Shown in pieces: positions 42,338 through 63,727 of a stretch of 64,000 bases of DNA. A program made the position numbers and the translations under genes. Numbering within the stretch: the stretch's first letter is position 1; the number at the start of each line of letters is the position of its first letter. Location of the stretch: NCBI GenBank assembly GCA_024763275.1, contig JANTFT010000006.1:1638-65637 (forward strand), read 5' to 3'. The notes under the pieces were generated by a model. It ran no database searches and was not told where the DNA came from. It worked only from the letters and a program-made list of their open reading frames with translations. Origin of the DNA: Anaerolineales bacterium. Lineage in GTDB: Bacteria; Chloroflexota; Anaerolineae; Anaerolineales; UBA11858.

Positions 42338-42371
42338 ACTGACGCCTCCTTATTCCAGGCGTCAGTTTTTG
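42338..42371 (+). terminator. intrinsic terminator after paralog 1
   Basis: ACTGACGCCT-(9 nt)-AGGCGTCAGT followed by TTTTGA. Confidence 0.7.
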
Positions 42372-42618: not shown

Positions 42619-42643
42619 GATAGCGAAGGATAACCTGAAACGT

Positions 42644-43054: not shown

Positions 43055-43096
43055 ATTTTTCAAGACAGTAATTTTTTACCGGTATTAGAAAACATT

Positions 43097-43135
43097 AAAG
43101 AGGCGTGGATGATCTGCTATCCACGCCTTTTGCTT
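43097..43135 (+). terminator. intrinsic terminator after S1
   Basis: AAAGAGGCGTGGAT-(8 nt)-ATCCACGCCTTTT followed by GCTT. Confidence 0.65.
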
Positions 43136-43504
43136 GTGGAAGATTAATCAGAAGAGCGGTTCCCTGCCAGTACCAGACAACAACCACAGCCAGGGACAGT
43201 GATTCGGGATCGGATTGCATCGCCGCAGCTGTTTCCGGGGAGGGGAGGTCCCCGGGATTTCCTAAACACCGATGAGTATCCTGGCACAGATGGCAGTGGC
43301 AGAGAACGGGAACTGAGCGATCTGGTCTGGACACCTCCTCGCCGACTGAGCTCCTGTTCAGCCGGTACCTTTTATTAAGACCTGGAAAATCGTCCAGAAC
43401 AACCAAGGAATGAGGTTTGCATGAAAGCCTAACAGAGTTGTCAGGCTTTTTATCTGCGCCCCCGTAGAGAGGAATGCCGGACCAGCGAGAGAAAAGGCCT
43501 TCTT

Positions 43505-43558
43505 CTAACAGGATTGTTAGGTTAACTGCCTTGAATAACCTCCCCCTGATGCTACACT
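43505..43558 (+). promoter_or_regulatory. locus-specific inverted repeat + promoter module (copy C)
   Basis: CTAACAGGATTGTTAGGTTA, TTGAAT (43531-43536), 16 nt, TGCTACACT (43550-43558). Spacing is identical to copies B and D. Confidence 0.6.
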
Positions 43559-43659
43559 GGTTTTACCCTGCCTGGGCATGATTGGTGGGGAATCAGGGAA
43601 ATATCCACTGGCGAAGGACTTCAGCGAGAGTATCCAGACGGTGGGTGTTTCCAGCACAT

Positions 43660-47010: not shown

Positions 47011-47425
47011 GGTTGGACTAACATAAGGAGTGGTACATATAAAGAGGGCATGTCAACGCGAACCTCCTCGGATGCTCCAGTATCGTCTCGCATGTCCGAT
47101 CCGACAAATACACCACGTCACGACTACAAACCGATACGCCCACAGCAACACCGGATACTTCTGGGCCGACCACATAGCCGCTGCCAACTCTACCCTAATT
47201 CTTTGCATGAAAGAGTGCAGAAAACGATGGAAAGCTTATAAGCGCCTTTTGATCTGGGTACCCTTTTCATGATGAGGCTATCAAAAATCAGAAACTTTTC
47301 GAGCCTTGAAAAGGATCACTTTGCCTGCCGCGATGTATTTTATAAGCTGACCTTTCAGGATTGTTAGCCGTTTTAGAGGACAAAACACGGGAAAAATCAC
47401 GCTATTCAACTAAAACTGGCCAAAC

Positions 47426-47543: not shown

Positions 47544-47921
47544 ATGAACTCAGTTATGAAATTTCGATATCGGATTTTAGCCCTTCTGGTTCTTGGAGTA
47601 ATCCTGAGTGCAGCCACCTATGGCTTTGCCGCTGCGAACAGTGTTCCCGACGGTGTTGCCGGCGAAGGTTCCGGAGCGATCTCTGGTTATACGGTTTCCA
47701 ACGTTGTCTACACTCTGGACAGCTCAGATCCCACTCAATTCGCCAGTGTTGCCTTTACCCTGGACGCGAATGCATCGGATGTATATGCAGGTATTGGGAA
47801 CGGATCTGTTATCTACTGGACCAGCTGCGCAGGCGGCCCCACTAATTTCACCTGTGATCTGACCAGTTCTACAGTCAGTGTTGCCGCTGCAATCGAACTG
47901 CATGTCTCTTCCGTGCAGTAA
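47544..47921 (+). CDS. small secreted protein, paralog S2 (SipW-type-like signal region)
   Basis: GGAGG RBS at 47533-47537. MNSVMKFRYRILALLVLGVILSAATYGFAAANSVP..ISGYTVSNVVYTLDSSDPTQFASVAFTLD..C..NFTC..LHVSSVQ. Confidence 0.75.
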   Translation: MNSVMKFRYRILALLVLGVILSAATYGFAAANSVPDGVAGEGSGAISGYTVSNVVYTLDSSDPTQFASVAFTLDANASDVYAGIGNGSVIYWTSCAGGPTNFTCDLTSSTVSVAAAIELHVSSVQ

Positions 47922-47949
47922 TCCCCTGGTTTGCAAATAAAAGAGAATA

Positions 47950-47984
47950 GAGGGGCGTGGTAAGGTACAATTACCGCGCCTCTC
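47950..47984 (+). terminator. strong hairpin between S2 and the signal-peptidase gene (terminator/attenuator candidate, no U-tract)
   Basis: 14-bp stem GAGGGGCGTGGTAA / TTACCGCGCCTCTC (two G:U pairs) with a 7-nt loop. No T-run follows. Confidence 0.4.
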
Positions 47985-48000
47985 TCTGTAAATAGAAAAC

Positions 48001-50361
48001 ATGATCTTGTTTGTTCGAAAAAATTTCCGAATTATCCTGATTTTCACGGTACTGGCAGTTGTACTGTGGATATTATTTGCGCCCCTGAAGCTGGGAGGCC
48101 AGGTATCCTATGTAATTATCACAGGGAACAGCATGGAACCGGAGATTGAGTTTGGAGATCTTGTGATAGCCAGGGCAGCGTCGAGCTATCAGCTTGACGA
48201 CCGGGTTGTTTACCGTCATCCCCAGGTTGGTTTTGTATTCCACAGGATCATCGGTCGGGACGATAATACTTTTACATTAAAGGGTGATAATAATGAATGG
48301 ACGGATTCTTATCACCCCCTGAAGAGTGATATTATTGGCAAGTACTGGTTCTTGATACCAGGGGGTGGAGCTGCAATTAATAAACTCCGCGAGCCAGTGT
48401 TCTTTGTTATTTTTACCCTTATAATTCTTTTAGTGATTGCGTTCATCTTCTTATTCCAGAGAAAAGAAATTCCTCTAAAGAAGTTGCGCTCGAAAAGGCA
48501 TCTTATGGACACTCAACAAACTCCTTCTACCGGTGAATTCCGCCAGGAAATACTGCTGGTTTTAGGTATCATAGCCATCGCCGCTCTGATATTCGGGGTG
48601 ATTTCTTTTACCCGTCCTCAAACCAAATCCATTGCGGATAACCTGACCTTTGAACATAGCGGTGGATTTGAATATAGCGCTCAGGACCAGGACAATATCT
48701 ACGATAGTGAACAGATCAAGACTGGCGAACCGATCTATCTGCTGCTTACGTGTGATATGAATATGGATTATTCCTATGAGTTTCTGGCCCAGAGGATGAC
48801 GAACAAAGAAGCAGAGCAGATAACCGGAACCTATCGGGTTGATGCATTGTTATCTGATATTGATGGCTGGGAACGCTCCTTTTCCCTGATATCGGATACG
48901 GATTTCAAGGGGTCTTCTTTTAAATCCAATATGGATCTGGATCTATGTGATATCCGTTCCCTGATCATTGAAAAAGAGGAAAAAACCGAAGCAAAGAATC
49001 GCTGGTACAACCTGACTATCTTACCAAATGTAAAACTCCAGGGCAGTATAGAAGGCCATCCTTTTCAGGAGAACTATCAAGCAGCGATCAATTTCCAGAT
49101 CGACACGAATATCATGAGGTTGCCTGATGGTCTTGACGGAATCGTCCTGAACCAGGAAGGTATGATTGAAAACTCGCGGGAAGTACCCAACACGATGCTG
49201 ATATTTGGTAGGGAGATCAGTGTGAAAGATGCCAGGAGAATTGGAGTGATCGTCTTCATACTCTCCCTGCTTGGAGCAGTTTATCCAGCCTGGTCCTTGA
49301 TCAGGGACATCAGATTTTCTGACGTATCACGAATCCAGGTCCAGTATTATCCTTTATTGGTGGATATTGAAGGAGGAAACCCTGCTAATCAGGCTGAACA
49401 GGTAGTTGCAGTAGCTTCCTTTTCCGATCTGACAAAAATGGCTGAGCGATATGGAGCAATGATCATGCATGAAAGGTTAGGGAGTTATCACCGCTACTCA
49501 ATTCAGGATGATCAAACAGTCTATCAATACGCCATCGAAGTGTTCAAGGAAGGATCTCTCTTCCCTAATATGAACGATTTTAAGAAATCAATCAGGCAGG
49601 CTATCGATGAAAACCAGCTCGAGCTGTACTACCAACCTGTAGTACGACTCCAAGATAAAGCAATTGTTGGGGTTGAAGCGTTCCTGCGCTGGTCACACCC
49701 AGAATTTGGAATACTGTATCCTGCTGATTTTATCTCCCATGCTGAAGAGGCCGACCTGATAGCAGATATCGATCGCTGGGTGTCCAGAAAGATCTGTTGG
49801 CAGATTCACAAATGGAAAAATGAAAACGTTCCGCTTGTTCCAATTTCGGTCAATCTTTCCCCGGAGACGATAGTAAGCAACGAGTTCATTCGTGGTTTTC
49901 TGGCCACCATGCTTGAAAACCAGTGCGATCCGGGTCTGATTCAAATAGAGATAAACCGATCCAATCAAGTCTTTCAGAGTGAAAAAGTAATGGATCATAT
50001 AAACCAGCTACATGAGGTCGGAGTCCGCCTGGCGGTAGATGACTTTGCGACAGATGCTGCGAATCAGATTAATCAGATATTACAGATGCCAATAAATACA
50101 ATCAAGATTGATCGAACTGTCATCCAGGAAATCACTGGAAACCCTAAAACTCAACGGCTGGTCGGTGCAATCGCCACAATGGCAAAAGGACTTGATATGG
50201 ATGTCGTCGCTCAGGGCGTCGAATCGGAAGAAGATTTGAAAGTCCTTAAAGCACAGAAGATAGAGATTGCCCAGGGATTCTATCTTGGTAATCTGGTCCA
50301 GGCTCAGGGGTTGGTTGACTTGTTAGAAAAACCGGTAGGATCCAAAACTAAAGAGGGGTAA
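48001..50361 (+). CDS. SipW/ER-type (Ser-His) signal peptidase I fused to an unknown extracytoplasmic domain and a C-terminal degenerate EAL domain
   Basis: aa 41-47 TGNSMEP, aa 81-83 HRI and aa 94-98 KGDNN form the archaeal/SipW-type S26 signature. Four predicted TM segments (aa ~10-30, 133-152, 184-203, 414-434). aa ~530-775 carry EAL-domain motifs YYQPVV, VEAFLRW, SVNLS, EINRS, DDFATDAA, KIDR, AQGVES, AQGFYLG. Confidence 0.85.
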   Translation: MILFVRKNFRIILIFTVLAVVLWILFAPLKLGGQVSYVIITGNSMEPEIEFGDLVIARAASSYQLDDRVVYRHPQVGFVFHRIIGRDDNTFTLKGDNNEWTDSYHPLKSDIIGKYWFLIPGGGAAINKLREPVFFVIFTLIILLVIAFIFLFQRKEIPLKKLRSKRHLMDTQQTPSTGEFRQEILLVLGIIAIAALIFGVISFTRPQTKSIADNLTFEHSGGFEYSAQDQDNIYDSEQIKTGEPIYLLLTCDMNMDYSYEFLAQRMTNKEAEQITGTYRVDALLSDIDGWERSFSLISDTDFKGSSFKSNMDLDLCDIRSLIIEKEEKTEAKNRWYNLTILPNVKLQGSIEGHPFQENYQAAINFQIDTNIMRLPDGLDGIVLNQEGMIENSREVPNTMLIFGREISVKDARRIGVIVFILSLLGAVYPAWSLIRDIRFSDVSRIQVQYYPLLVDIEGGNPANQAEQVVAVASFSDLTKMAERYGAMIMHERLGSYHRYSIQDDQTVYQYAIEVFKEGSLFPNMNDFKKSIRQAIDENQLELYYQPVVRLQDKAIVGVEAFLRWSHPEFGILYPADFISHAEEADLIADIDRWVSRKICWQIHKWKNENVPLVPISVNLSPETIVSNEFIRGFLATMLENQCDPGLIQIEINRSNQVFQSEKVMDHINQLHEVGVRLAVDDFATDAANQINQILQMPINTIKIDRTVIQEITGNPKTQRLVGAIATMAKGLDMDVVAQGVESEEDLKVLKAQKIEIAQGFYLGNLVQAQGLVDLLEKPVGSKTKEG

Positions 50362-50377
50362 GGAGTCCTTGATCAGC

Positions 50378-50836
50378 ATGAGACTGAAATGGCGACCGCT
50401 GGCGGCTTTTATGTTTTTGATTTTTGCAGTACTGGTGGTCGTGTCTGTAATGAACGCTTTTGCTACTGCCAACACTGTTCCTCAAACCAGAGCTGATAAG
50501 AACAGTATAGGTCTGGGAGTCAATGAGCTCCAGCCGCCAGAATGTGTCGGGTTGGGGTTGACCAATATCGTAGATATCGGTGCTGGTGAAACGGGTACAA
50601 GCGCCAATGATCTGATACTAGGGACAGCTAATTCTGACGCTGTGATCAGGGGCGGGGCAGGAAATGACTGTATCCTTGGCGGGGCAGGAAATGAACGACG
50701 TTGGTTTTTCTTCTTCTGGATTCCAGGTATTTTTGGGGACGAAGGAAACGATGTGATTATTGGCGGTCCCGGAAATGATGTGTGTTATGGCGGGGCTGGT
50801 AATGACATTTATTACGGCTGTGAAATAACATACTAG
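50378..50836 (+). CDS. small secreted protein S3 with RTX-like GGxGxD repeats
   Basis: AAGGAG RBS at 50360-50365. The signal region ...VVVVSVMNAFATANTVPQT resembles S2 (AAANSVP). Repeats are GGAGNDCILGGAGNE...GDEGNDVIIGGPGNDVCYGGAGNDIYYG. Confidence 0.65.
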   Translation: MRLKWRPLAAFMFLIFAVLVVVSVMNAFATANTVPQTRADKNSIGLGVNELQPPECVGLGLTNIVDIGAGETGTSANDLILGTANSDAVIRGGAGNDCILGGAGNERRWFFFFWIPGIFGDEGNDVIIGGPGNDVCYGGAGNDIYYGCEITY

Positions 50837-50980: not shown

Positions 50981-53900
50981 GTGTCTATGATTCCCGCTTC
51001 GAGTAATATAACAACAAAGCACTTCCGCTGGCTTGGATATTTAACAGCTATCATATTAAACGTTTTCCTGCTGGTAGATTTACCATCCCCAAGCCTGGCA
51101 AAGCCATTAGCGGCAGCTGCTCCTGCGGTGACAATTGCTCCCTCGTCAGTGATGATCGGCGAGGATTTTGATTTTTTGGTCACCTTTAACAATACCGGAA
51201 CAGATTCTGGTTACGGGCCGTTCATTGATCTGGTATTCCCGTACACCGGCCAGGACGGCGATGACGGGATCGAATATTATTCTTCCTCCTATCTGGGTGC
51301 GTCCCTGGAAGATGACATCCAATACTTCCCGGATCAAGGCGGGGGGTGGGGATGTGTCACTCATCCCTGGCTGCGTGATAATACCGGAAGCTATGTGGAC
51401 GTTTGTGGAAGAGCAGGTGACCAGTTTGTCTCCATCCGTCTGCCGTTCGGATCCTTCACACCCGATCAGCCCCAGCTGGATATCACTGTGAACGCCCACT
51501 TGAGCATTAATGCTGATCTTAATCCAGGATTGTTCATCTATGGCCGGGGTGGATTTATGTTTGGCGAAACCCCAGAAGATGATTGGTGCTGCGGTGACAC
51601 CCCCTTTGCGGTCCCCAATGGTACAGACAGCACAACCTGGCCAGCGACCCCGGTCACACCCCAGGTGATAACCTTCAGCAAAGCCTATACCGGCCCGGGC
51701 AATACCGAGGACGAGACTTCCACCGGCCCGAATTTCCCCCGCCAGTATACCCTGACTGTCGATATCGCCAGCGGCCAGACCCTTACCAATATCGAGATCC
51801 AGGACCAGCTGCCGGATAACGTCCAGTTCATCGGCATCGACGCCGGGGGTACCACAGCTGGTTATACTGTGACCTCCCTGCCGAGTACCTCCACTCCAGG
51901 AGGGACGTTGTCCTTGAATTACGCCAGCGGAAGCGGGACGGTAGTGGTCACCTATGACTTTTATATCCCCGAATTGTATGACCAGGATGGGGACACGCTC
52001 TTTGATGAGCCGGTGATCGATCCACTCTCCGGCGATGATGTCTCTTCAGCCAATATCGCCTGGGTGGATGCTTCCTGGGATCCAGTAGACCCCCGTGATC
52101 CAGTAGCGCCCCTTACTTCCGATGCCACCTGCCCGACCTGCCCGCCGCTGCACACCCTGATGGATAAATCGCTGGCTATCCAGAAAAGCGTGGCTGTTGT
52201 GCCTGGCACCGGCGGAGGCCCGTTAGGCGACCAGGTTGCCCCGAATGCGATCCTGGAGTATACCCTTTCAATCCAGGTTTCAGATTACTTCACATTGGAC
52301 AATCTGGTTGTCACCGATACGATCTCGGATGGCCAGCATGTTTTACCTGCCTCGACCTTCACACCTACGGTCCAGGTCAGCAGCAACCCGGGGGCTTTTG
52401 GCCCGCTAGCGTTTAACAGCTCGAATTATGAAATTAGCTGCGATTACACTGGCGCTACAATTACAGCACCTCCTCCTACAGAATGCACCATTGTCACGGG
52501 GGGTGCGACCGGTCAGACAACACTCACGTTCAGGCTGTCAGATGAGATCAATGCTAATTTGTCTGATGGGACGATGCGGGGTGGATGTGTCAATCCGGTT
52601 TCTCCCTTTGGTCTGTACTCACCCTGCGATCGCTCCAACCTGCGTGATGGGCCAACGACTGCAACGATCATTTATAGAGCCAAGGTGCTGGACCAATTTG
52701 TGGATGATTATCCTTCGGGCGATATCAGTGTTGACCAGGGAGATGAACTGGATAACACAGTGGACGTGACTGGAGATGTGCTAGACAACACTTCAGGTGG
52801 AGTAGTTGGAGTGGAGTCTGATGATGCCGCAGCCGGCACAGCCATCGGACGTGAAACCCTGTCTAAATCAATTTACGCCATAAATGGCGAGACAAATTCA
52901 GCTCTCTGGGATCGGGATGCGCTTGGTCGGGTCAGGGTAAATCCCGGGGATGTTGTGACATACGAGCTGGAATATGATCTATTGACCTCTGACGTCGAAG
53001 AACTTACCTTTGACGATTATTTCCCGCTGCCGGTTTTTGATGTTACCGACCCTGATGATGATGGTGCTGCTGGTCCTTCCTGGACATTCTCGAGTTCAGG
53101 GGGTATTCCTGCCCCGGGAGTTGTTGGTTTGCTCCTGCCCGGAGACACCTTTTATCAGTATATGACTGATGGGTTGAGTGGGGGTACGGGCACACTATCG
53201 CCCTCGACCAATAACCCAATTCCCACGCAGGATCCTGTGATCACGGCAGATGGCCTGAACAACAAGATCAATATCTATTACGCGGATTATGATGATACCC
53301 GCAATCAGTCCAAGACCGTGGATCTGCTGATCTCGATCACAGTTTCTGACGATCCCTTTGCGGACGGTCTGTTCCTGACCAACATGGCCCATGCCTTTGA
53401 GGGCAGCACCAATGCGGGCACGAATACCGAAAATGCGATTATCCAATTTGTGCTCGGTGAGCCGGTGCTGGTATCAACCAAAGGGATTATATGGTCCAGT
53501 AATGCAGATGCCAGTGTTGTGTTCGATCCCCTCCCGGCTGGCCCGGTTGGTATTACATTCCAGGACCCCTCTTTTGCACCCCGCTGGACAGGAACTCCAG
53601 GAATCATCAATTCCAGCGGCCTGGCTGCCAACCCGATCGACAGCGATCTGAGCGGCGTTGACGCTAGTGACACGGTCACCTTTGCCATCACGATTGAAAA
53701 TCAGGGCAGCAGTATCAACGGCGCCTTTGACATCCAGCTCAGAGATATGATCGATACCGCTTTTTACCAGGTTCCTGCTACTGGAGCTGATCTGAACCTA
53801 CAGGTTTATTACGGGGATGGCACTGGCCCAATTGCGTATAGATCTATCAGGCTCAACGGACCGAATCCGTTCTGCACGGCGAGCGCTAATGCCGATGATT

Positions 53901-56900
53901 GCGGCCTGGAATTATTTAACCAGGGCATCGAGCTGATCGATCCGGTCGGAGCAGGGGTCTGCTCTGCGCATGATCCCAATCTTGGCAATAACGTCATCCT
54001 CATCACTTATGATCTGGTCCTCAGGGATGATGTCAACCCTGGGCAGGCTCTGAACACGTCCTCTGTGTTCCATTATGCCGGCTCGGAGGGAGGGCCGAAT
54101 CACCTGGAGGGGGTCAATCCCCTGGAGGATGACGCCACCGTAGATGTGATCGGTGGGCTGGAAAAGACCCTGGTGGAGACGGAGATTGTCTCAGCCACCA
54201 ATGTGGATGATTTTATCAATGATATCTATGAGGCTGTCATTGGAGAATTGGTCACTTACCGGATCTCCGCCATTGTTCCTGAGGGGGAAGTGCCTGGAGC
54301 CAGGCTGGTGGATCATCTTGACGGTGGGCTGGCCTTTGTCTCCTGTGATGCTGCTGTCATTCCCAACCCGGCTGCTTCAGTGGGGATCTCAACTGATTTT
54401 GGCTCTGGCTCGACAACCGACTTTTCCAGTGTTTGCCCTGCGACCGAGGCTTCCGGAGTATCCAATAACGGACAGGATATCGTTTTCGATCTGGGGAACC
54501 TGGTCAACAGCGATCGGAACAACACTACCGAAGAACGGATCGTGATCACCTACCAGGTGGTTGTGCTGAATGTGAGCGGGAATCAGGCCGGGACACTCCT
54601 TGATAATCAGGTTGATTTCACGATGAATGCTGGCTCTGGCGACGTGGTGCTGGCGACAGCCGACGCCCAGGATGTGACGGTCATCGAACCGGCAGTAATA
54701 ACTGAGAAATACACCCCGGCCGGGACGACCGGTACATCCACAAGCGGTGATGCTGGCGATCCGGTGTCCTACACGATCACGCTTAGCAATCCATCCACCC
54801 CGGCGGATACGGATGCCTTTGATGTGGAATTCAATGACAGTTTCCCGATGTGCCCGGACCCAACCGACGGGTCGGCGGTGCGTGACCTGGCAATCGATTC
54901 CCAGAGCGGCGGGGCCACTTTTATTCTGACCGGGGACAATACAGCCGGGTGGCAGTTGAGCGCCACTTATGATGGCGCTCCTGGAACTCCGATCGATTTT
55001 GCCCCGGGGGAGACGGCCACTGTCGATCTCTCCGGGACGCTGGCCTATTGTGTCACTCCGGGATTGTCGGTCGACAATACCGGGAATACGACCTGGACCA
55101 GTCTGAGCGGGGATTATGCTTCGGTGGCCCGATCGACCTATAACCCGGACGCCCTGGAGCGGACGGGCGGGGATGGCGTGAACGGTGCCCTGAATGATTA
55201 TGCCAGCCAGGCTACAGCGAGCGCTGTGATTGTCAACCCGACCAACACCAAATACATCATCAGCACCTCAGAAGCCCATACCGGCCTGGTGAACGGGCTG
55301 GAAAATCTGGCCATTGGGGAGATCGTCCGCTTCCGCCTGGTGTCTGTCATTCCTGAAGGAACCAGCCCGAACTTCCAGATCAGGGATCTGCTGCCCGGGG
55401 GATTGATATTCCTGAACGATGACACATCTGTGGTCGCCTTTGTTTCCGATGGTGGCATCACGTCTTCGCCAGCTGGAACTCTTCCTGTACCGGCTGTCCC
55501 CAATATCTGCAACCAGGTCGGTTCAACTGCGGATGCCAGCACCCCGGTGATGGATCCGGCGAACTGCACCCTGGCCGACAACAATGTCAGCAGAAGCCCC
55601 AGCACCAGTCTGGACGGGGATGATGTCTTTGCCGTGCCGGGAAGGGATGTCTATTTCAAACTGGGCGACCTGGTCAACAACGACAGCGACGCGGATTCCG
55701 AGTATGTAGTGATCGAGTTCAACGCCCTGGCGCACAACTTCAGCACGAACCAGAACGATTTTGGGGATACTGTCACCAATCAGAGCCAGGTCTACATCAC
55801 AGGCAGCCCCAATGGCGGTCTGTCAACAGCTGCAACGCTAAGAGTTGCTGAGCCAGTGATCAGCGTGACCAAATCCCTGGTTCCTCCTCTGCCAGTAGAT
55901 GCTGGCGACCCCATCCAATATGAGATCGTTTTCAGCAATGCGGCCTCGGGTGATGCCGGGGCTACCGCTTATGACCTGGAGCTGACAGATACTTTCGATG
56001 CCTATCTCGAAGCCCTGACCATATCCTCCGTCAGCACAACGCAGGGTGGGGTCTGTGTGGGAGATGGAGCAGGGACAACAGCCTTCACTCACTCGGAATC
56101 TCTGGCAGCGGGCGCCCTGACAGTGGACCTTTCCTGCCTGGATCCGGGCGAGAGCGTCACGGTCAACGTGACCGGCAATGTGGTTGATAATGTTCCTGCC
56201 GGCACAACGCTGCTTAACAGCGCTGTGGGGACAGGGACCAGCCTGGAGGGCGCCAACGGCACGACTGGCAACTCCACGGGCTCTGACACCCCCGGAGCAT
56301 CCGGATTGGACACAGGAGAACGCGACGGCAGCGATAGCGATACAGGCGGCCCCGATGATTATTATGATGCCGGTACTGCCAACCACAGCCTGGCCGTCCC
56401 TGTGATAAGCAAGTCCGTTGAGCCACCCGGTGAGTGGACCATCGGGGAAAGCTTCACCTACGACCTGGTCATTACCCTTCCGGAAGGCGTCACGCCGGAT
56501 ATGGTGGTCTATGATGACATACCGGATGGACTGGAATTCGTCAGCTACAACCTGATCACCACCACAGCCGGTGCTGGCAGTTTGCTGGTGGAGGATTTTG
56601 ATGGTACTCTGCCATCTCCTGTTGTGACCGCGGCAGGGGGCTCTGGTGGAGACCTGGAATTGGACTTCGGGGATACCACCACAAACGAGGAATATCCCAA
56701 TAACACAAACAACAACAGCTTCCAGGTTCAGATCACCGTTCAGGTCCTGAACATTGCCAGCAATCAGAACGGGGTCGTCCTCACCAACCAGGGCGAGCTG
56801 CGCTATTCCAGCGGCACAACTGCGACAGGCACAGTGGACATTGAAATCATTGAGCCGGTTCTGAACATCGCTAAAACGGTGGATGACGATACCCCGGGTC

Positions 56901-59656
56901 TGGGCCAGACCCTTACCTATTCTCTTGTTATTTCCCATGACCTGGATGGCGCTGGGGAGGACAGTCAATCTGATGCTTTCAACGTTCATATCACGGATAC
57001 CCTGCCGGCGGGATTGAGCAATTTGACCAATATCACCACCTCCAGCACAGGGAACTGCGCTTCAGGATTCGATACCTCCGGGTCCAGCGCTTCAGTGCTG
57101 GATGTAGCCATTAACGAGATTCCTTACTCGCTGCCTGCCCCGGGATGTGTGGTGACGATCACCTTCGATGCCACGGTGGACAGCCCGCCGGATCCTAACA
57201 CACCTGCATTGGGGAGCGTGATCGATAATACCGCTGAGATCACCTGGACGTCCCTGCTGGTCAGCAACGGTCAGGAGCGTTCTGGTGATGGCATCGCCGG
57301 CAACGTGGATGATTACGAGACAGCTGATACTCAGGCTGCAACGATCACCAATCCGGAACTGCGTGTTACCAAAGACGACGGGGTGGGAGTATATATCCCG
57401 GGTGATTCGGTTACCTATACCATCCTGGTGGAGAATATTGGCAACGCTGATGCGGTGAACGCGCTGGTGGAAGACAGTTTGCCCAGGGAAGTCAATCCGC
57501 CCAATGACCTCATGGTCAGCAGCTGGGATTGGGTATGTGCCGGCTCGACCGGCGGCGCCTCTGGCTGCACCGGCAGCCTGGGTCTAAGCGCTGATTTCAG
57601 CGATCTGGTGAACCTGCCAGCGGGTGCGTCGATCACTTACCAGGTGACTGCAAATATCCTCTCCTCCGCTGAAGGCGATCTGGTCAATACGGCCACAATC
57701 AGTATGCCAGCAGGGATCATAGAGCCGACCCCGGCTGACAACACAGCGACTGATACGGACATCCAGGAATCCCATGCGGATCTGAGCGTCACCAAGGACG
57801 ATGGGGTGACGATCATCTCTCCCGGGGAGGTGATCACCTATACCATCGTAGTGTCCAACATCTCACCCAGTGATGTCAGTGGGGCAGTTGTGGGTGACCT
57901 GATTCCGGCTGAGATCGACTCCTGGACCTGGGACTGCTCGGCAGTGCCACCCACTGGCGGTGCCTCTGGCTGTGATGGCGTGACCGATTCCACAGCTGAT
58001 TTCAATGACACGGTGAACTTACCAGCAAGTTCCTCGATTACCTACCAGGTAACTGCCCGGACGTCCCCGTCCGCCAGCGGCACGCTTACCAATCAGGTCA
58101 CGATAGCTGTACCAACTGGTGTGATCGAGGACAATCCCGCTGACAACACTGCCAGCGATGCGGACGGCTTCCCGACCCACACCAAGACTCTCACTGGTGT
58201 GGTCCACGGTGTGGCAGCACCGCCGGATGTGGCAATCGGGGAGATTCTCATTTACGAGATCACCCTGGCTGTACCGGATGGCACCCTGCCCAATCTGCAT
58301 CTGATCGATTCCCTTGATCAAGGACTGGCATTCTTGGGGTGCGATTCAATCACCGCACCCGGGCTTACTACCAGTGCCCCGGGTGGATTCACCGGGATCT
58401 GCGGCAGCCCTGTGGTTTCTGAACTGCCAGGCGGTAACCCGGAAGAGGTGAACCAGGGGCGGCGGGTGGATTACGATTTTGGGACCCTTATCAATTCCAG
58501 CGGTGGATTTGTGGACCTGGTGCTGCGCTACCAGGTTGTGGTCCTGGATAGTCTGGGCAACCAGAGCGTTTCCACACCGCCGCTGAATAATGATGCGGAA
58601 TGGGTCTGGGATTCCGGTCAGCTTTCTGATCAAGCCGTGGGCGTCACTATTCTGGAACCGGATCTGACCATCAGCAAGAGCGCGGATCCGATCACGGTCT
58701 ATCCGGGCCAGGTCACCACCTTCACACTGGTTGTGGAGCACTCGGCTTCCAGCCAGACCTCAGCCTACGATGTGGAGCTGACCGACATCATTCCGGCAGA
58801 TTTGATCTACCAGCCGCCCATCCGTCATGTCAGCGGTCAGGCTCCTACGACAATTAGCGACGCGGGGGATCCAACCCTGGTCGTGACCTGGGATGAATTC
58901 CTGAACAACGGTGTGAATTCGGTGATCGAGATCGATGTCATGCTCGATCCGGCTTTCAATCAGCGCCGCTTTGTTCAAACCATCACCAATGACGCATCGC
59001 TGTCCTGGAGCAGTTTGCCAGGGGATTTCTCTGCCCCGCAATCTCCCTATAATACGCTTTCTACTGAGAGGCGCTACGATCCGCTGAGCAACATTGACAT
59101 CTACAGTGCCGCTGATGGCGCCAGGATCAGAATCCCGCGCCTGCCAGACACCGGCTTTGCTCCTGGCAGGGTGACTGACCTTCCGGCCCAACCCCCCGCT
59201 GCTGCCTATAGGGATCTCAATGGACTCCGGCTGTGGATCCCGGATCTGGGAATATCCCTGCCGATCGTCAGTGTGCCAAACTCTCAGCAGGGCTACGACC
59301 TTACCTGGCTTGGCTCCCAGGCAGGCTGGCTGGAGGGCACTGCGTATCCATCGTGGAAAGGCAATACCGTGATCACCGGCCACGCCTACCTACCCAGCGG
59401 TTTACCCGGGCCGTTCGTGGATCTGGATCAACTGGTGTGGGGTGATGAGCTTATCCTTTATGCCAACGGCTACCGATATACCTATCAGGTCATAAACAAC
59501 AGGCTGGTCTCCGGTGACGATCTCAGCATTCTGGGGCACAAGGATCAGGATTGGCTGACTTTGTTCACCTGCAAGGAATACAGTGATAATCTGGGTGGTT
59601 ATCTGTGGAGGCAGGTAGTCCAGGCCGTTTTGATCGAAGCGGAAAAACTCAAGTAA
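50981..59656 (+). CDS. giant (2,891 aa) repeat-rich surface adhesin (DUF11/'conserved repeat domain'-type modules) with C-terminal LPDTG motif fused to a sortase domain
   Basis: N-terminal signal/anchor (WLGYLTAIILNVFLLVDLPSPSLA). Many modules of the type VTK..P....PG..VTY.I.V.N.G...A..V...D.LP. LPDTG at aa 2721-2725 (nt 59141-59155). The sortase-like C-terminus has TGH (H2801), LTLFTC (C2864) and WRQ (R2877). Confidence 0.9.
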   Translation: MSMIPASSNITTKHFRWLGYLTAIILNVFLLVDLPSPSLAKPLAAAAPAVTIAPSSVMIGEDFDFLVTFNNTGTDSGYGPFIDLVFPYTGQDGDDGIEYYSSSYLGASLEDDIQYFPDQGGGWGCVTHPWLRDNTGSYVDVCGRAGDQFVSIRLPFGSFTPDQPQLDITVNAHLSINADLNPGLFIYGRGGFMFGETPEDDWCCGDTPFAVPNGTDSTTWPATPVTPQVITFSKAYTGPGNTEDETSTGPNFPRQYTLTVDIASGQTLTNIEIQDQLPDNVQFIGIDAGGTTAGYTVTSLPSTSTPGGTLSLNYASGSGTVVVTYDFYIPELYDQDGDTLFDEPVIDPLSGDDVSSANIAWVDASWDPVDPRDPVAPLTSDATCPTCPPLHTLMDKSLAIQKSVAVVPGTGGGPLGDQVAPNAILEYTLSIQVSDYFTLDNLVVTDTISDGQHVLPASTFTPTVQVSSNPGAFGPLAFNSSNYEISCDYTGATITAPPPTECTIVTGGATGQTTLTFRLSDEINANLSDGTMRGGCVNPVSPFGLYSPCDRSNLRDGPTTATIIYRAKVLDQFVDDYPSGDISVDQGDELDNTVDVTGDVLDNTSGGVVGVESDDAAAGTAIGRETLSKSIYAINGETNSALWDRDALGRVRVNPGDVVTYELEYDLLTSDVEELTFDDYFPLPVFDVTDPDDDGAAGPSWTFSSSGGIPAPGVVGLLLPGDTFYQYMTDGLSGGTGTLSPSTNNPIPTQDPVITADGLNNKINIYYADYDDTRNQSKTVDLLISITVSDDPFADGLFLTNMAHAFEGSTNAGTNTENAIIQFVLGEPVLVSTKGIIWSSNADASVVFDPLPAGPVGITFQDPSFAPRWTGTPGIINSSGLAANPIDSDLSGVDASDTVTFAITIENQGSSINGAFDIQLRDMIDTAFYQVPATGADLNLQVYYGDGTGPIAYRSIRLNGPNPFCTASANADDCGLELFNQGIELIDPVGAGVCSAHDPNLGNNVILITYDLVLRDDVNPGQALNTSSVFHYAGSEGGPNHLEGVNPLEDDATVDVIGGLEKTLVETEIVSATNVDDFINDIYEAVIGELVTYRISAIVPEGEVPGARLVDHLDGGLAFVSCDAAVIPNPAASVGISTDFGSGSTTDFSSVCPATEASGVSNNGQDIVFDLGNLVNSDRNNTTEERIVITYQVVVLNVSGNQAGTLLDNQVDFTMNAGSGDVVLATADAQDVTVIEPAVITEKYTPAGTTGTSTSGDAGDPVSYTITLSNPSTPADTDAFDVEFNDSFPMCPDPTDGSAVRDLAIDSQSGGATFILTGDNTAGWQLSATYDGAPGTPIDFAPGETATVDLSGTLAYCVTPGLSVDNTGNTTWTSLSGDYASVARSTYNPDALERTGGDGVNGALNDYASQATASAVIVNPTNTKYIISTSEAHTGLVNGLENLAIGEIVRFRLVSVIPEGTSPNFQIRDLLPGGLIFLNDDTSVVAFVSDGGITSSPAGTLPVPAVPNICNQVGSTADASTPVMDPANCTLADNNVSRSPSTSLDGDDVFAVPGRDVYFKLGDLVNNDSDADSEYVVIEFNALAHNFSTNQNDFGDTVTNQSQVYITGSPNGGLSTAATLRVAEPVISVTKSLVPPLPVDAGDPIQYEIVFSNAASGDAGATAYDLELTDTFDAYLEALTISSVSTTQGGVCVGDGAGTTAFTHSESLAAGALTVDLSCLDPGESVTVNVTGNVVDNVPAGTTLLNSAVGTGTSLEGANGTTGNSTGSDTPGASGLDTGERDGSDSDTGGPDDYYDAGTANHSLAVPVISKSVEPPGEWTIGESFTYDLVITLPEGVTPDMVVYDDIPDGLEFVSYNLITTTAGAGSLLVEDFDGTLPSPVVTAAGGSGGDLELDFGDTTTNEEYPNNTNNNSFQVQITVQVLNIASNQNGVVLTNQGELRYSSGTTATGTVDIEIIEPVLNIAKTVDDDTPGLGQTLTYSLVISHDLDGAGEDSQSDAFNVHITDTLPAGLSNLTNITTSSTGNCASGFDTSGSSASVLDVAINEIPYSLPAPGCVVTITFDATVDSPPDPNTPALGSVIDNTAEITWTSLLVSNGQERSGDGIAGNVDDYETADTQAATITNPELRVTKDDGVGVYIPGDSVTYTILVENIGNADAVNALVEDSLPREVNPPNDLMVSSWDWVCAGSTGGASGCTGSLGLSADFSDLVNLPAGASITYQVTANILSSAEGDLVNTATISMPAGIIEPTPADNTATDTDIQESHADLSVTKDDGVTIISPGEVITYTIVVSNISPSDVSGAVVGDLIPAEIDSWTWDCSAVPPTGGASGCDGVTDSTADFNDTVNLPASSSITYQVTARTSPSASGTLTNQVTIAVPTGVIEDNPADNTASDADGFPTHTKTLTGVVHGVAAPPDVAIGEILIYEITLAVPDGTLPNLHLIDSLDQGLAFLGCDSITAPGLTTSAPGGFTGICGSPVVSELPGGNPEEVNQGRRVDYDFGTLINSSGGFVDLVLRYQVVVLDSLGNQSVSTPPLNNDAEWVWDSGQLSDQAVGVTILEPDLTISKSADPITVYPGQVTTFTLVVEHSASSQTSAYDVELTDIIPADLIYQPPIRHVSGQAPTTISDAGDPTLVVTWDEFLNNGVNSVIEIDVMLDPAFNQRRFVQTITNDASLSWSSLPGDFSAPQSPYNTLSTERRYDPLSNIDIYSAADGARIRIPRLPDTGFAPGRVTDLPAQPPAAAYRDLNGLRLWIPDLGISLPIVSVPNSQQGYDLTWLGSQAGWLEGTAYPSWKGNTVITGHAYLPSGLPGPFVDLDQLVWGDELILYANGYRYTYQVINNRLVSGDDLSILGHKDQDWLTLFTCKEYSDNLGGYLWRQVVQAVLIEAEKLK

Positions 59657-59674: not shown

Positions 59675-59714
59675 AAACAAGCCCCGCATTATTAGAAAGC
59701 AGGGCTTGTTTTTA
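59675..59714 (+). terminator. intrinsic terminator after the giant gene
   Basis: AAACAAGCCC-(17 nt)-GGGCTTGTTT followed by TTA. Confidence 0.7.
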
Positions 59715-59893
59715 TGTGAAATGGGAAGGGTTTGCTCTCAGATGAGCTGCTGGGGCTTGTCTGAGCTTCCAGGGGCTGTTTTTAACCCGGAAAGCAGGAT
59801 TGATATGGATGCAGCTGACCGGGCCTGTCTGCAGGCGTTTCTCGCTGAGGCTATTTTTGGGGTTGATTCTGAGGGATTTTCCGGGATGAGGTT

Positions 59894-60949
59894 TCAGGCT
59901 TTCCAGGTGCGCTCCAGCACCCTGAGCCAGTTCTTCCAGCAGATGCCCTCCCTTTCTTCCCGGGAGAAACCAGCTGCTTCCAGCAGGTTCACCAGTTTCT
60001 GATAACCGCTCACATCACCCAGCTCAGAGGGGATTTTAGTACCGTCAAAATCCGATCCAAAAGCGACATGTTCGGTTCCGATCAGCTCGCTGATATGGAG
60101 GATGTGATTGATAATGGTAGAGATGGGGGCATCGTCCTTGGGGCGTACCCCACCATACAGGTCATTGACCGAGAAGATCACCCCTACCACACCTCCGCTT
60201 TCAGCGACGGCTTTGAGCTGGCTGTCGGTCAGATTACGGGCTTTGGGGACCAATTTATGAGCGGCCGTGTGGGAGGATACCAGGGGTACAGAGGAGCGCT
60301 TGGCAACGTCCCAGAAACCCTTTTGGTTCAGATGAGCCAGATCGATCAGTATCCCCATATCATTGCAGGCGTCGACCAGGGCTTTGCCTGCCGCGGTCAG
60401 TCCAGGCCCGCTGTCCGGATGCCCTGGGTAAACAAATGGAACCCCGCTGCCAAAGGCATTGGGTCTGCTCCAGGTGATGCCCAGCGAGCGCAGTCCCTTA
60501 TCGTAGAATTCCTGCAGATTCTCTAGATCGGGCCGGATGGGCTCTGCGCCTTCCAGGTGCAGTACGGCAGCCATCACCTCGTTTTCAAGGCAGCTGCTGA
60601 GCTCCTGGAAATCCCTGACAATTTTCAGCTGGCCCTGGGAATCGTCCTGGATCCGGTGAAGGAGATCGATCATCTTCAGGGCTGAGCTGAGGGCGTAATC
60701 TTCCGGGAGTTCTGGCGCCAGGGGCACGCGGTAGCCGTCCTCGCTGAAGACTATTCTCTCTATCTCAGAAGGCACTTCGGGAGGGTCGGGGGTGTAAACC
60801 GCGAAAAACCCCCCGGCGAAACCACCCCGCCTGGCCCGGGGCAAATCCATCTGCCCCGATCCTCTTTCCAGGAAAGCCCTGGTATCAAGAGGATCAGCGG
60901 AGCTGGCGATCTTGCTGAGGATATCGTTGTGGCCGTCGAAGATTTTCAT
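59894..60949 (-). CDS. M19-family membrane dipeptidase
   Basis: MKIFDGHNDIL start, LHLEGAEP, IDLAHLN, SSHTAA and GSDFDG metal-ligand motifs. Confidence 0.9.
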   Translation of the reverse strand: MKIFDGHNDILSKIASSADPLDTRAFLERGSGQMDLPRARRGGFAGGFFAVYTPDPPEVPSEIERIVFSEDGYRVPLAPELPEDYALSSALKMIDLLHRIQDDSQGQLKIVRDFQELSSCLENEVMAAVLHLEGAEPIRPDLENLQEFYDKGLRSLGITWSRPNAFGSGVPFVYPGHPDSGPGLTAAGKALVDACNDMGILIDLAHLNQKGFWDVAKRSSVPLVSSHTAAHKLVPKARNLTDSQLKAVAESGGVVGVIFSVNDLYGGVRPKDDAPISTIINHILHISELIGTEHVAFGSDFDGTKIPSELGDVSGYQKLVNLLEAAGFSREEREGICWKNWLRVLERTWKA

Positions 60950-61282
60950 ATTCTAATGGAGGCTTCGCAGCTGAGCGAGGATCGGTGTGAAGCACAACTT
61001 CTTAACCGAGGATCCTTGCAGGACCGACCGGATTGCCTGCCCACTAAGCTGGAAGCTGTGAAAAGTAAGTTGAGCTGATATTATATGATTGGTAATGATT
61101 CCTCTGGGGCCTGATGCGGGTTTACAGCTTGCTAAAATGCCTCGTATTGTGCTGCAGGATTTCCTTGTCTCCTGGTCTCTCTGTTCACCAGCCAATTTTC
61201 CAGTCTTATTACAGCGATCGGCCGAGCAGCGCCACAAGGTCTCTTTAATCCGGTCTTAAGAGAAGCAAAGCTGAACTGTTTT

Positions 61283-61972
61283 CTAGAACGCTTCTGTTTC
61301 ATCATCGGTGCGGTCGAACTCAATCAGATCCCCGGTGATCGTGAAGATGGTCCTCTCGCAGATATTTGTCACCCGGTCAGCCGCCCGTTCCAGGTTGTGG
61401 GCAACCCAGAGGTGGAAAGTGGCCCGGTCGATGTTCTCCCGGTCTGAGATCATCAATTCCAGCAGATCCTGGTAGATCATATTGTAGAGCAGATCGACCT
61501 GATCGTCCTCTTTGGGGATGGAAAGCGCGGTCTGTTTATCCAGCTCTACAAAGGCATTGAGAGCCCGGTGCAGCATATCGGCTGTGATCTCGGCCATCTT
61601 GGGGATGTTCACCAGCTGCTTCAGGGGCGGCTGATCTCCCAGACGCATGGCGATGCGGGCGATGCCCTTGGCGTAGTCCCCGATGCGCTCCAATTCTCCG
61701 GCGATGTCGATGATCGACGAGAGCCGCCGCAGGTCGGTGGCCATGGGCTGCTGGGTGGCGACCGTGATCAGGGCTTTGCGTTCGATCTCATATCTTCTCT
61801 CATTGATCTGGTTGTCCTGGTCATAGAGGACTTTAGCGTACTCCAGATCCCGCTCTACCAGTGATTTGACGCAGCCCAGGACAGCTTTCTCAACGATGCC
61901 ACCCAGTTCCAGGATGGCGTCGTTCAAATCCCTGATCTTGCTATCGAGAGTCTCTCTGGTTTCTCTGGCCAT
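61283..61972 (-). CDS. phoU: phosphate signalling complex protein PhoU
   Basis: 229 aa. Duplicated PhoU repeats (ELERIGDYAKGIA, NLERAADRVTNICE). Sits downstream of pstB. Confidence 0.93.
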   Translation of the reverse strand: MARETRETLDSKIRDLNDAILELGGIVEKAVLGCVKSLVERDLEYAKVLYDQDNQINERRYEIERKALITVATQQPMATDLRRLSSIIDIAGELERIGDYAKGIARIAMRLGDQPPLKQLVNIPKMAEITADMLHRALNAFVELDKQTALSIPKEDDQVDLLYNMIYQDLLELMISDRENIDRATFHLWVAHNLERAADRVTNICERTIFTITGDLIEFDRTDDETEAF

Positions 61973-62103
61973 GATTAACCTCGTTCGAATCTATGCCCGC
62001 CCTGCCGGGATGGGCATTGGCTTTCTCTATCCAGTCTAAGTCAGCCAGCCTGCAGCGGAAAGGGATAGAGGCTATATGTGAATATAATTGTGGATACAGT
62101 ATA

Positions 62104-62859
62104 TCATCCAAATCTTCCCTGAATATAGTCCTGGGTCCGCTGATCCTGGGGATTGGTAAAGATCAATTCAGCGCGGTTGGTCTCGACCAATTCTCCCTGG
62201 AGCATAAAGGCAGCGATGTCAGCGGTTCTGGCAGCCTGCTGGACGGAATGGGGGACCAGGACGATGGTATAGTCCTTCTTCAGTTCCTGGAGGGATTCCT
62301 CCACCTTTCCGGTGGAGATGGGATCAAGCCCGGAAGTAGGCTCATCGAGCAGGATCACTTCTGGCTCGAGGGCCAGGGAGCGTGCCAGGCATAAACGCTG
62401 CTGCTGTCCGCCTGAGAGGGCCACCGCAGGATCGTCCAGGCGGTCTTTGACTTCCTCCCACAGAGCGGCTTTGATCAGGCTGCTTTCCACCGCACCCTCC
62501 AGCCGGTCGGGATCGTTTATCCCGGCAACGCTCAGTCCGTAGGTCAGGTTCTCGCGTATGGAAAGCGGCAGCACTACAGGACGGGCAAAGACCATCGCCA
62601 CCTTGCGGCGAAGCTGGATGACATCATAGGATGGCTGGAAAATATCCTCCTGGTCCAATTTGACTGTGCCCTGCATCCGGACGACATCAGCCAGGTCGTT
62701 CAGCCGGTTAAGGGTCCGCAGCAGGCTGGATTTGCCTCCCCCAGCGGGGCCGAAGATCACAAAGATCTGGTTAGCCGGGATCTCCAGGCTGATATCGCGC
62801 AGAGACTCGGTGCCGTCGGAGTAAGTCAGGCAGAGTTTGTGGATGGTGATCTTGTTCAT
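62104..62859 (-). CDS. pstB: phosphate ABC transporter ATP-binding protein
   Basis: Walker A GPAGGGKSS, signature LSGGQQQRL, Walker B ILLDEPTSGLD. The C-terminus TQDYIQGRFG is typical of PstB. Confidence 0.95.
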   Translation of the reverse strand: MNKITIHKLCLTYSDGTESLRDISLEIPANQIFVIFGPAGGGKSSLLRTLNRLNDLADVVRMQGTVKLDQEDIFQPSYDVIQLRRKVAMVFARPVVLPLSIRENLTYGLSVAGINDPDRLEGAVESSLIKAALWEEVKDRLDDPAVALSGGQQQRLCLARSLALEPEVILLDEPTSGLDPISTGKVEESLQELKKDYTIVLVPHSVQQAARTADIAAFMLQGELVETNRAELIFTNPQDQRTQDYIQGRFG

Positions 62860-62866
62860 GGTCCCT

Positions 62867-63727
62867 CTACCATTGCCTGCGGGCCCGGGCCCGGGAGCGG
62901 ATGGTGGTGGCGATCAGGTTCATGCTCAGCACAAAGACCAGCAGCACCAGCGCTGTGCCGTACTGGATCTTGACCGGCATGCCAGGAACCTGGGTGGATA
63001 TCACGAAAAGGTGATAGGGCAGGGCCATGGTGGCGTCCAGTGGGGAGTGCGGCAGGCGGGGAAGGAAAAAGGCCGCCACCGTGAATAGAATGGGAGCGGT
63101 TTCCCCGGCCGCGCGCTCCAGGCCGAGGATCACCCCGGTGAGGATGCCGGGAAGAGCCTGGGGGAGGACGATCCGGCGGATGGTCTGCCACTTGGTGGCC
63201 CCAACGGAGATGCTGACCACCCGGAATGCCTGGGGGACAGCCCGCAGGGCTTCCTCGGCGGTGCTGATGATGACCGGCAGGGTCATGATCGACAGGGTCA
63301 GCGAGCCGGCCAGGATGCTGGTCCCGAATCTCAGGAAGAGCACAAACAGCCCCAGACCGAAGAGCCCGTAGACGACCGAGGGAATCCCCGCCAGGTTGAT
63401 GATGGCGATGCGGATCAGCTGGGTCGCCCGGTTGTGCGGGGCATACTCGGACAGGTAAATTGCCGCCCCGAGGCCCAGGGGGACGGCGAAGATAGCTGTG
63501 CCCAGGGTGAGAAGGAATGTTCCCACAATGGCCGGTAGGATGCCTCCAGCCCGCATCCCCTCGCGGGGGAAAGCACTGAGGAATTCCCAGTTGATGGCCG
63601 GGTAGCCCAGCACCACGATGTAGATGACCACCGCCGCGATGGGGAGCACGGTCAGTAAGGTCATCAGGGAAAGAAGCCCAAAACCAAAGCGCTGCTGCTG
63701 GAGCCGAAAGGATCTTTTCATAATCAA
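62867..63727 (-). CDS. pstA: phosphate ABC transporter permease PstA
   Basis: 286 aa, six TM segments, EAA-like loop (EEALRAVPQAFRVVSISVGATKWQTIRRIVLPQALPGI). Confidence 0.9.
   Translation of the reverse strand: MIMKRSFRLQQQRFGFGLLSLMTLLTVLPIAAVVIYIVVLGYPAINWEFLSAFPREGMRAGGILPAIVGTFLLTLGTAIFAVPLGLGAAIYLSEYAPHNRATQLIRIAIINLAGIPSVVYGLFGLGLFVLFLRFGTSILAGSLTLSIMTLPVIISTAEEALRAVPQAFRVVSISVGATKWQTIRRIVLPQALPGILTGVILGLERAAGETAPILFTVAAFFLPRLPHSPLDATMALPYHLFVISTQVPGMPVKIQYGTALVLLVFVLSMNLIATTIRSRARARRQW

Follow-up and report, generated by a model that had tools for sequence, protein, structure and literature searches.

The window analysed here is a 64-kb (64,000-nucleotide) stretch of DNA from an uncultured Anaerolineales bacterium (Chloroflexota; contig JANTFT010000006.1). 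The gene in question encodes a giant secreted fibrillar protein, which ends in an LPDTG sorting motif followed on the same chain by a sortase domain. Its open reading frame (ORF) lies on the forward strand at 50981..59656, begins with the start codon GTG and gives a product of 2,891 amino acids (aa). The features of the gene are the following:

50981..59656 (+): whole gene, a secreted fibrillar protein with the LPXTG–sortase module at its end (ORF and translation, Pfam, NCBIfam)
50981..51100 (+): predicted Sec-type signal peptide, aa 1-40, with a basic n-region and the hydrophobic core WLGYLTAIILNVFLLV; cleavage predicted behind SLA
51101..51679 (+): conserved all-beta head domain, aa 41-233 (AlphaFold, Foldseek, relatives)
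51680..59140 (+): stalk, aa 234-2720, of about 17-18 immunoglobulin (Ig)-like DUF11/CLIPPER and RrgB-type domains (Pfam, NCBIfam)
59141..59155 (+): LPDTG sorting motif, aa 2721-2725, predicted scissile bond Thr2724/Gly2725 (sequence, conservation)
59156..59224 (+): tether FAPGRVTDLPAQPPAAAYRDLNG, aa 2726-2748, non-hydrophobic and of fixed length (conservation, model)
59225..59653 (+): sortase catalytic domain, aa 2749-2891, with no membrane helix (Pfam, NCBIfam, AlphaFold/Foldseek, conservation)
59675..59715 (+): intrinsic-terminator-like hairpin and U-run immediately 3' of the stop codon (RNA fold -20.7 kcal/mol, z -3.25)

Sortases are typically separate membrane enzymes, whose substrates are held in the membrane by a hydrophobic helix and a basic tail. 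The fused system departs from this description, as there is no separate membrane-anchored enzyme and no helix-and-basic-tail substrate. The segment from Gly2725 to the end of the protein comprises 167 aa, 143 of which form the sortase domain, and the protein terminates 14 residues after Arg2877 without a hydrophobic stretch. The core of the signal peptide (aa ~17-35) is the sole strongly hydrophobic stretch of the whole protein. No membrane helix is found after LPDTG: the maximum Kyte–Doolittle 19-residue mean in the last 200 aa is 1.1 and there is no hydrophobic segment after aa 35. The hidden Markov models (HMMs) of LPXTG anchors (TIGR01167 and PF00746) have no match on the giant protein. 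The terminator-like hairpin behind the stop codon shows that the sortase domain is the true end of the gene, and that a frameshift masks no anchor-coding stretch further downstream.

The catalytic residues are His2801 in TGH (59381-59383), Cys2864 in LTLFTC (59570-59572) and Arg2877 in WRQ (59609-59611). These are the positions given by an earlier reading of the same DNA made from its letters and ORFs (the sequence-only reading), and the translation also bears out its placement of LPDTG and of a non-hydrophobic linker after it. The Pfam Sortase family (PF04203, peptidase C60; cutoff 26.6 bits) matches aa 2752-2884 at 68.5 bits, or at 74.3 bits when the C-terminus is searched in isolation; the generic sortase model TIGR01076 scores 45.9 bits, and 51.4 on the isolated C-terminus, with a cutoff of 39.35. 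An AlphaFold model of aa 2557-2891, built on an alignment 110 sequences deep, has a mean predicted local distance difference test score (pLDDT) of 92.9 and a predicted template modelling score (pTM) of 0.86; the pLDDT and the secondary structure were the output used. In a Foldseek comparison with PDB structures the top 50 matches are all sortases (E-values 1e-9 to 6e-8, target TM-scores up to 0.82), with classes C and E first. The 15 best matches of a profile search against the PDB are all class C sortases (E 3.6e-15 to 1e-10), and a plain sequence search also places class C first. HMM, predicted fold and Foldseek thus all give a sortase, and together with the conserved triad described below they uphold the structural claim of the sequence-only reading, namely a C-terminal sortase without an anchor and with a retained LPxTG; a non-sortase fold, which that reading had named as refuting it, is thereby dismissed.

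That reading had also proposed assigning the domain to one of the classes A-F by HMM. Membership of the sortase superfamily stands, whereas no class model reaches its cutoff. The class C model NF033745 gives 41.8 and 47.5 bits with a cutoff of 160. On the isolated C-terminus class D gives 47.0 bits (cutoff 165), the SrtD model 47.7 (140), class E 31.3 (160), class F 29.8 (166) and GN 28.2 (158), and no class A or B match is listed in the NCBIfam scan. Overall, the class-specific models score 23-48 bits against cutoffs of 140-166. The domain is a member of the sortase superfamily which falls in none of the curated classes, the class C pilus sortases being the nearest. No dedicated NCBIfam model (June 2026) for the fused sortase was found, and its relatives carry the public names ‘sortase’ or ‘LPXTG-site transpeptidase family protein’.

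Conservation was counted over 158 non-identical C-termini. The catalytic His is present in 158/158, the Cys in 157/158 and the Arg in 155/157; because the triad is essentially invariant across the family, the fused sortase is under selection to remain functional. At position 1 of the motif, L is found 129 times and I 18 times, and position 2 is P in 152/157. Position 3 (X) is virtually unconstrained (D 36, A 34, E 25, V 12, and others), while positions 4 and 5 are T and G in 156/158 each. Such L/I-P-X-T-G variation is the signature of a real sortase recognition signal. LPDTG is also the single [LI]P.[TSA]G in the entire giant protein. Composition would give 0.16 LPxTG per protein, and 0.002 within the 40 aa preceding the sortase domain; with T and G both retained in 156/158 sequences, these counts exclude a chance origin of LPDTG.

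The conservation continues into the tether, so that motif and tether together are almost invariant across the family. The tether has 23 residues, which is how far the motif stands ahead of the first barrel strand, with the pattern FAPGxxTxLPxQP...; F is kept in 156/158, A in 145, P in 149 and G in 125, and a T six residues further on in 147. The distance from the motif Pro to the catalytic-core signature is 57-61 aa in 149/151 sequences. In the model, the LPDTG segment lies in a block of pLDDT 94 as coil, and the tether is modelled at pLDDT 94-98 though it too is coil. With a fixed spacing, a conserved tether and this model confidence, the LPDTG–FAPG segment is predicted to be docked on the enzyme, in a register that the model does not give.

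Relatives were collected by a genome scan with one genome per species, and 80 loci with flanking DNA were examined; they are labelled L001 onwards. In addition, an exhaustive HMMER search with the sortase domain only was run against 1.84 billion cluster representatives (50% identity) at E ≤1e-30. A word-indexed protein search gave fragments of up to 404 aa, and the full-length relatives come from the genome scan and the representative search. Relatives are encoded in 146 species genomes and form at least 884 protein clusters at 50% identity (E ≤1e-30). All 150 of the 150 best representatives have the sortase domain at the extreme C-terminus, in proteins of up to 5,246 aa. In the 80 loci the domain is always the C-terminal end of a large ORF, commonly of more than 2,000 aa; the flanks captured are about 10 kb and the giant ORFs often extend past them. 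The ORFs of the loci stop 107-122 aa past the core motif GWLEGTAYP, and across the family (loci and representatives) the ORF ends 105-158 aa past it. As the ORFs end so shortly after the core motif, the family members have no C-terminal helix.

The LPxTG is kept in ~83/85 sortase-bearing ORFs of the genome loci (~98%), the exceptions being a degenerate QLKTG in L073 and one motif masked by N, and in 82/85 occurrences (80 loci) TGFAPG is followed by the sortase. Among the cluster representatives, 128/146 have the motif; of the 18 without it, 10 have near variants (LPNSG, NPATG, SPATG and others) followed by F[AE]P, and 8 could not be scored. Because they are retained together across loci and representatives, the motif, the tether and the active enzyme are inherited as one unit. 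The sequence-only reading had asked how widespread fusions of DUF11 repeats with a sortase are and whether the LPXTG is always retained; the answer is that they are widespread, with the motif kept in about 98% of the genomic relatives. It had seen no other LPXTG in the neighbouring proteins, and indeed no canonical substrate (LPXTG, membrane helix and basic tail) is found in the window or in the 80 related loci (~1.2 Mb of flanking DNA). It is practically certain that the LPXTG–sortase architecture is real and conserved.

Concerning taxonomy, 77 of the 80 loci are labelled Anaerolineales, Anaerolineae or other Chloroflexota; the relatives include ‘Ca. Aquidulcis’, which belongs to Chloroflexota. 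The remaining 3/80 come from metagenome-assembled genomes (MAGs) labelled Acidithiobacillus, Methanosarcinales and Phycisphaerae, two of them on contigs shorter than 9 kb, and are probably mis-binned. Short ORFs occur in L001, L005, L030, L046, L069 and L078. The possibility that these are standalone versions was rejected in favour of frameshifted or masked assemblies; the judgement is made from L078, a long-read MAG where the rest of the giant gene lies in another frame, and the others look similarly truncated. A second sortase-fused subfamily stands in tandem with the main type in L014 (99..3188 and 3498..10133), L056 (2..10717 and 11448..15896) and L069 (9740..10618 and 13992..17591). The second subfamily begins with AQISLPAE[MV]NKSF in L014 and L056, and its motif is IPVTGFAPG in L014 and IPETGFAPG in L069. 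The tandem pairs are reminiscent of major and minor pilins.

The passenger of the module is a presumed adhesin. An equivalent N-terminal Sec-type signal peptide is present in 22/22 complete relatives, and cleavage is predicted after SLA (aa 40). Removal of the signal peptide would leave a mature passenger of ~2,684 aa (279 kDa, isoelectric point 4.05), which corrects the 2,720 aa of the sequence-only reading. The first ~200 residues of the N-terminal region (aa 41-240) are modelled by AlphaFold as a beta-sandwich at pLDDT ~90, and the model is good there only. Foldseek gives the head domain just generic Ig-like or beta-sandwich matches (integrin, pilin, CLIPPER, cohesin) at E ~1e-4. The N-terminal region of ~560 aa (aa ~40-600) is common to 15/22 complete relatives, and the other 7/22 have other N-termini.

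In the stalk, Pfam DUF11 matches four stretches (139.5 bits), the DUF11-type repeat model TIGR01451 scores 136.9 bits, and the RrgB-type isopeptide-forming fimbrial domain TIGR04226 of NCBIfam matches three stretches (162.7 bits). DUF11 is the CLIPPER isopeptide domain, for which Lys-Asn/Asp isopeptide chemistry has been demonstrated (PMC12617251). The full-length protein contains 26 Lys (0.9%), about one per Ig-like domain, located at the domain starts and spaced by ~130-180 aa; this pattern fits that chemistry. The scarcity of Lys was also considered as a way to avoid self-ligation, and this was rejected, since other secreted proteins of the window are equally Lys-poor (0.8-1.5%). A strongly conserved motif SLPGD...PQS.YN.LSTER.YDP is located at aa 2687-2706 (nt ~59039..59098), 20-35 residues before LPDTG, and is modelled as a low-confidence loop (pLDDT 50-69). 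A similar element, W-T-S-L..G....ER.G.G..DY, recurs at the ends of other stalk domains (e.g. near aa 1370-1400).

Directly upstream of the giant gene lie three further genes, characterised with Pfam and NCBIfam:

47544..47921 (+): 125-aa secreted protein with no family match
48001..50361 (+): membrane protein with a signal peptidase I (archaeal/SipW-type), DUF5305 and a cytoplasmic EAL domain
50369..50836 (+): 155-aa secreted protein with RTX Ca-binding repeats

The signal peptides of the two small proteins end alike (FAAANSVP and FATANTVP). The peptidase–EAL protein scores 61 bits with TIGR02228 (cutoff 51.85) and 202.8 bits with the EAL cyclic di-GMP (c-di-GMP) phosphodiesterase domain; such a fusion would tie a dedicated signal peptidase to c-di-GMP turnover. 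The peptidase–EAL and RTX genes also precede the giant gene as a pair in L003 and L011, the closest relatives with upstream DNA captured, while most loci are filled by the giant gene itself. The genes at 47544..50836 may be part of the same surface module as the giant gene, and their link to the sortase module is conjecture. In their arrangement they recall the biomatrix-fibre loci of TasA/AbpX type, which have a signal peptidase I of their own; in bacteria, loci of this type are reportedly associated with LPXTG proteins, sortases and c-di-GMP enzymes (bioRxiv 10.64898/2026.01.04.697558). A role as fibre subunits, or as acceptors of the fused sortase, is conceivable for the small upstream proteins. 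One candidate sorting signal was looked at within the peptidase–EAL protein: aa 175-201 (48523..48603) contain TPSTGEFRQE, a hydrophobic helix and TR, and match TIGR01167 with 19.2 bits against 15.9. It was rejected as a likely chance match, being preceded by a KKLRSKRH loop and placed on the cytoplasmic side by the positive-inside rule.

Further upstream, a Tad-pilus-type pseudopilin cluster extends over 37636..45771 (+), with a TadE-like protein (37636-38430), a TadG-like protein with a VWA domain (38447-40087) and two very large TadE-like proteins of 703 aa (40173-42284) and 729 aa (43582-45771) with long Pro/Thr-rich linkers. Between the Tad genes and the adhesin locus are IS3-type transposase remnants (45999..47241; an HTH_Tnp_1 ORF and broken frames). 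At 34006..35754 (+) a 582-aa ORF contains fused NuoC and NuoD domains (30-kDa and 49-kDa subunits of NADH dehydrogenase). Downstream, on the opposite strand (59894..63727), are an M19 membrane dipeptidase (Pfam, 311.8 bits) and three further ORFs that resemble PhoU, PstB and PstA, as judged from the sequence alone. ORFs of matching size (351 aa, then 229-248 aa) are found 3' of the giant gene in L001, L002, L004, L005, L008 and L034, which suggests that the downstream genes are conserved housekeeping synteny and not part of the module.

With moderate confidence, we consider the fused sortase to be a self-contained, probably single-use module, in which the protein would process itself and transfer its passenger to an amine acceptor. 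We infer that self-cleavage at T/G with passenger transfer would be the most economical account of the conservation pattern. The ~279-kDa fibrillar protein would be exported by Sec, its last 170 residues being the sorting module. As the sortase would be the last part to leave the translocon, it would fold after the whole passenger has been exported, and the reaction would be delayed until export is complete. Cys2864 would then attack the Thr2724-Gly2725 bond of its own chain or of a neighbouring copy, cutting the main chain and leaving the passenger as a Thr thioester on Cys2864. An amine nucleophile would resolve the thioester, so that the passenger becomes attached covalently by its C-terminus, and the 167-aa sortase fragment (GFAPG...) would be shed. 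The candidate nucleophiles are an amine of the peptidoglycan stem or of lipid II, a Lys of another subunit, or a matrix protein. The enzyme would be made one-to-one with its substrate and would probably act once, and its fusion to the substrate would make a helix-and-tail membrane retention signal unnecessary. An engineered single-chain sortase–LPXTG fusion self-cleaves (Mao 2004, as cited in PMC3614425), and so does the engineered fusion BISOP (PMC2901362). A further point in favour is that the class C counterpart of the motif–tether segment occupies the substrate groove (PMC3493515).

Some observations weigh against this account. In class C sortases the lid, DP[FWY], precedes beta-1 by ~25 residues and occupies the substrate groove, where its Pro superimposes on that of LPXT (PMC3493515). 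In the alignments with the Ebp SrtC (PDB 24rr_A), it is FAPG, not LPDTG, that pairs with the lid LDPF, Pro on Pro; these are the sole alignments which reach the tether, and their posterior probability is moderate. LPDTG could thus lie six residues outside the pocket in the resting state. An alignment of 36 head regions also yielded no acceptor Lys: the invariant Lys 234, 402 and 629 are all at domain starts, like Lys that form intramolecular isopeptides, and there is no separate pilin-type motif. With FAPG rather than LPDTG at the lid position, same-chain cleavage has no advantage over cleavage between neighbouring copies: LPDTG may dock in the groove of its own chain, or FAPG may act as a lid-like plug that presents LPDTG to a neighbouring copy, possibly for polymerisation.

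A specific version of the self-processing account names the acceptor: in a self-polymerising pilin, Thr2724 would be joined to a Lys of the next copy or of a sortase-fused paralogue, giving head-to-tail covalent fibres without a membrane pilus sortase. The nearest solved relatives of the domain are all class C sortases of pilus assembly, the passenger has three RrgB-type TIGR04226 domains (162.7 bits), the head domain is conserved in 15/22 complete relatives, and the adjacent sortase-fused paralogues in L014, L056 and L069 recall major and minor pilins. Giant DUF11 proteins also form filaments in another member of Chloroflexota (bioRxiv 10.1101/2025.08.19.671072). We nevertheless regard this version as unlikely, given that there is no conserved pilin-motif-like Lys besides those at the domain starts, that 7/22 complete relatives have unrelated N-termini, and that the class C HMM reaches just 42-47 bits with a cutoff of 160. 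The pairing of FAPG with the lid LDPF, Pro on Pro, can be read differently, as LPxTG–FAPG being an uncleaved pseudo-substrate, an autoinhibitory lid of an active sortase which is displayed to act on other proteins (the small upstream secreted ones, or LPXTG proteins elsewhere). Class C lids do fill the substrate groove (PMC3493515), and the conservation of the tether extends well past the five motif residues. A lid, however, does not need a perfect LPxTG with a free X, the known ones being DP[FWY]; a genuine recognition motif beside an intact Cys/His/Arg site should be turned over; and no other sorting-signal substrate is present in the window or in the 80 loci. This makes the lid a distinctly improbable explanation.

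The nucleophile could also be water, the sortase serving as a C-terminal pro-domain that removes itself and frees the mature fibre into the matrix without covalent anchoring. Sortases slowly hydrolyse the acyl intermediate when no amine is available, engineered fusions release their cargo in this way, and after signal-peptide cleavage the sequence offers no feature that would keep the protein at the membrane. Against this, the route would be a costly one for no more than a proteolytic cut, all sortase classes characterised so far have been selected for transpeptidation, and retention in more than 800 clusters speaks for a productive outcome; we hold hydrolytic release to be very improbable. 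Hardly any weight is left for an artefact, be it two genes joined by misassembly or read-through, or an LPDTG arisen by chance. Some relatives are seen as short ORFs, but the case of L078 is explained by the remainder in another frame, an unbroken ORF, with the domain C-terminal in every case, is seen again in 146 species genomes and at least 884 clusters, and the chance expectation of the motif at its position is 0.002. The comparative data effectively refute an artefact.

Among known systems, the class C sortases of Gram-positive bacteria (Enterococcus Ebp SrtC of PDB 24rr, SrtC1 and SrtC2 of group B Streptococcus, S. pneumoniae SrtC-1) are the best sequence and profile matches and among the best fold matches to the fused domain, sharing the 8-stranded beta-barrel, the triad and TLxTC. 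Both have a conserved Pro-containing segment ~25 residues before beta-1, in the position of the substrate-mimicking lid, and both are associated with isopeptide-stabilised fibre proteins. They differ in that class C sortases are separate membrane proteins with N- and C-terminal helices, whereas the fused module has no helix and is the C-terminal domain of its presumed substrate. In addition, a true LPxTG directly precedes the lid equivalent of the fused module, where FAPG replaces the DP[FWY] of class C, with the Pro aligned and the Asp and the aromatic residue absent. The canonical LPXTG signal (TIGR01167 and Gram_pos_anchor) has the same pentapeptide and the same L/I-P-X-T-G conservation pattern; there, a helix and a basic tail hold the substrate for a separate sortase, whereas here a hydrophilic tether and the enzyme take their place.

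Hedgehog and other HINT proteins also have a C-terminal domain which forms a thioester where it meets the passenger; attack by an external nucleophile then couples the passenger covalently and releases the domain, in a single-turnover, one-to-one reaction. The logic is the same as that proposed for the fused sortase, but in fold and chemistry the two are unrelated: HINT domains use an N-S acyl shift at their own first Cys, and no recognition pentapeptide is involved. The engineered sortase fusions (Mao 2004; BISOP, PMC2901362) place enzyme and LPXTG on one chain and prove the principle of T/G self-cleavage; as the cited accounts describe them, they have the sortase N-terminal to the motif, the opposite order, they use the class A enzyme of S. 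aureus, and release is hydrolytic or Gly-mediated only. No description of a natural LPXTG–sortase fusion was found in the literature, only engineered ones, in a search that did not cover most subscription journals. Within the same phylum, the GhlA protein of Litorilinea aerophila has a DUF11 beads-on-string stalk, a size of several thousand residues and an N-terminal hydrophobic segment, and giant DUF11 proteins of this type form polar ‘grappling-hook’ filaments (bioRxiv 10.1101/2025.08.19.671072; PMC13319060); in contrast to the family studied here, neither a sortase nor an LPXTG is reported in those papers.

The fused family is widespread and, judged by its sequences, mechanistically suggestive. 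A large natural family with enzyme and substrate on one chain and the retention signal dropped would add a new mode to sortase biology, and would extend it to Chloroflexota, whose envelope is atypical and poorly understood. Surveys restricted to the last 50 residues for sorting motifs (e.g. PMC12617251) would miss this family. With its ~170 aa (LPxTG, FAPG tether, sortase), the compact module could serve as a protein tag for self-cleavage or self-ligation that nature has already optimised. We see about an even chance that the Anaerolineae possess a membrane-independent, single-chain system in which a one-shot, class-C-like sortase, one per fibre, would cleave the adjacent LPxTG and couple the fibre to the wall, the next subunit or the matrix at any distance from the membrane. 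If true, this would be a natural Hedgehog-like ‘self-sorting tag’, and it may be the main route to covalent surface or matrix structures in filamentous, monoderm-type Anaerolineae. The family gives a handle on how fibres and matrix are built in the Anaerolineae, which are abundant filament formers in anaerobic digesters, sediments and soils.

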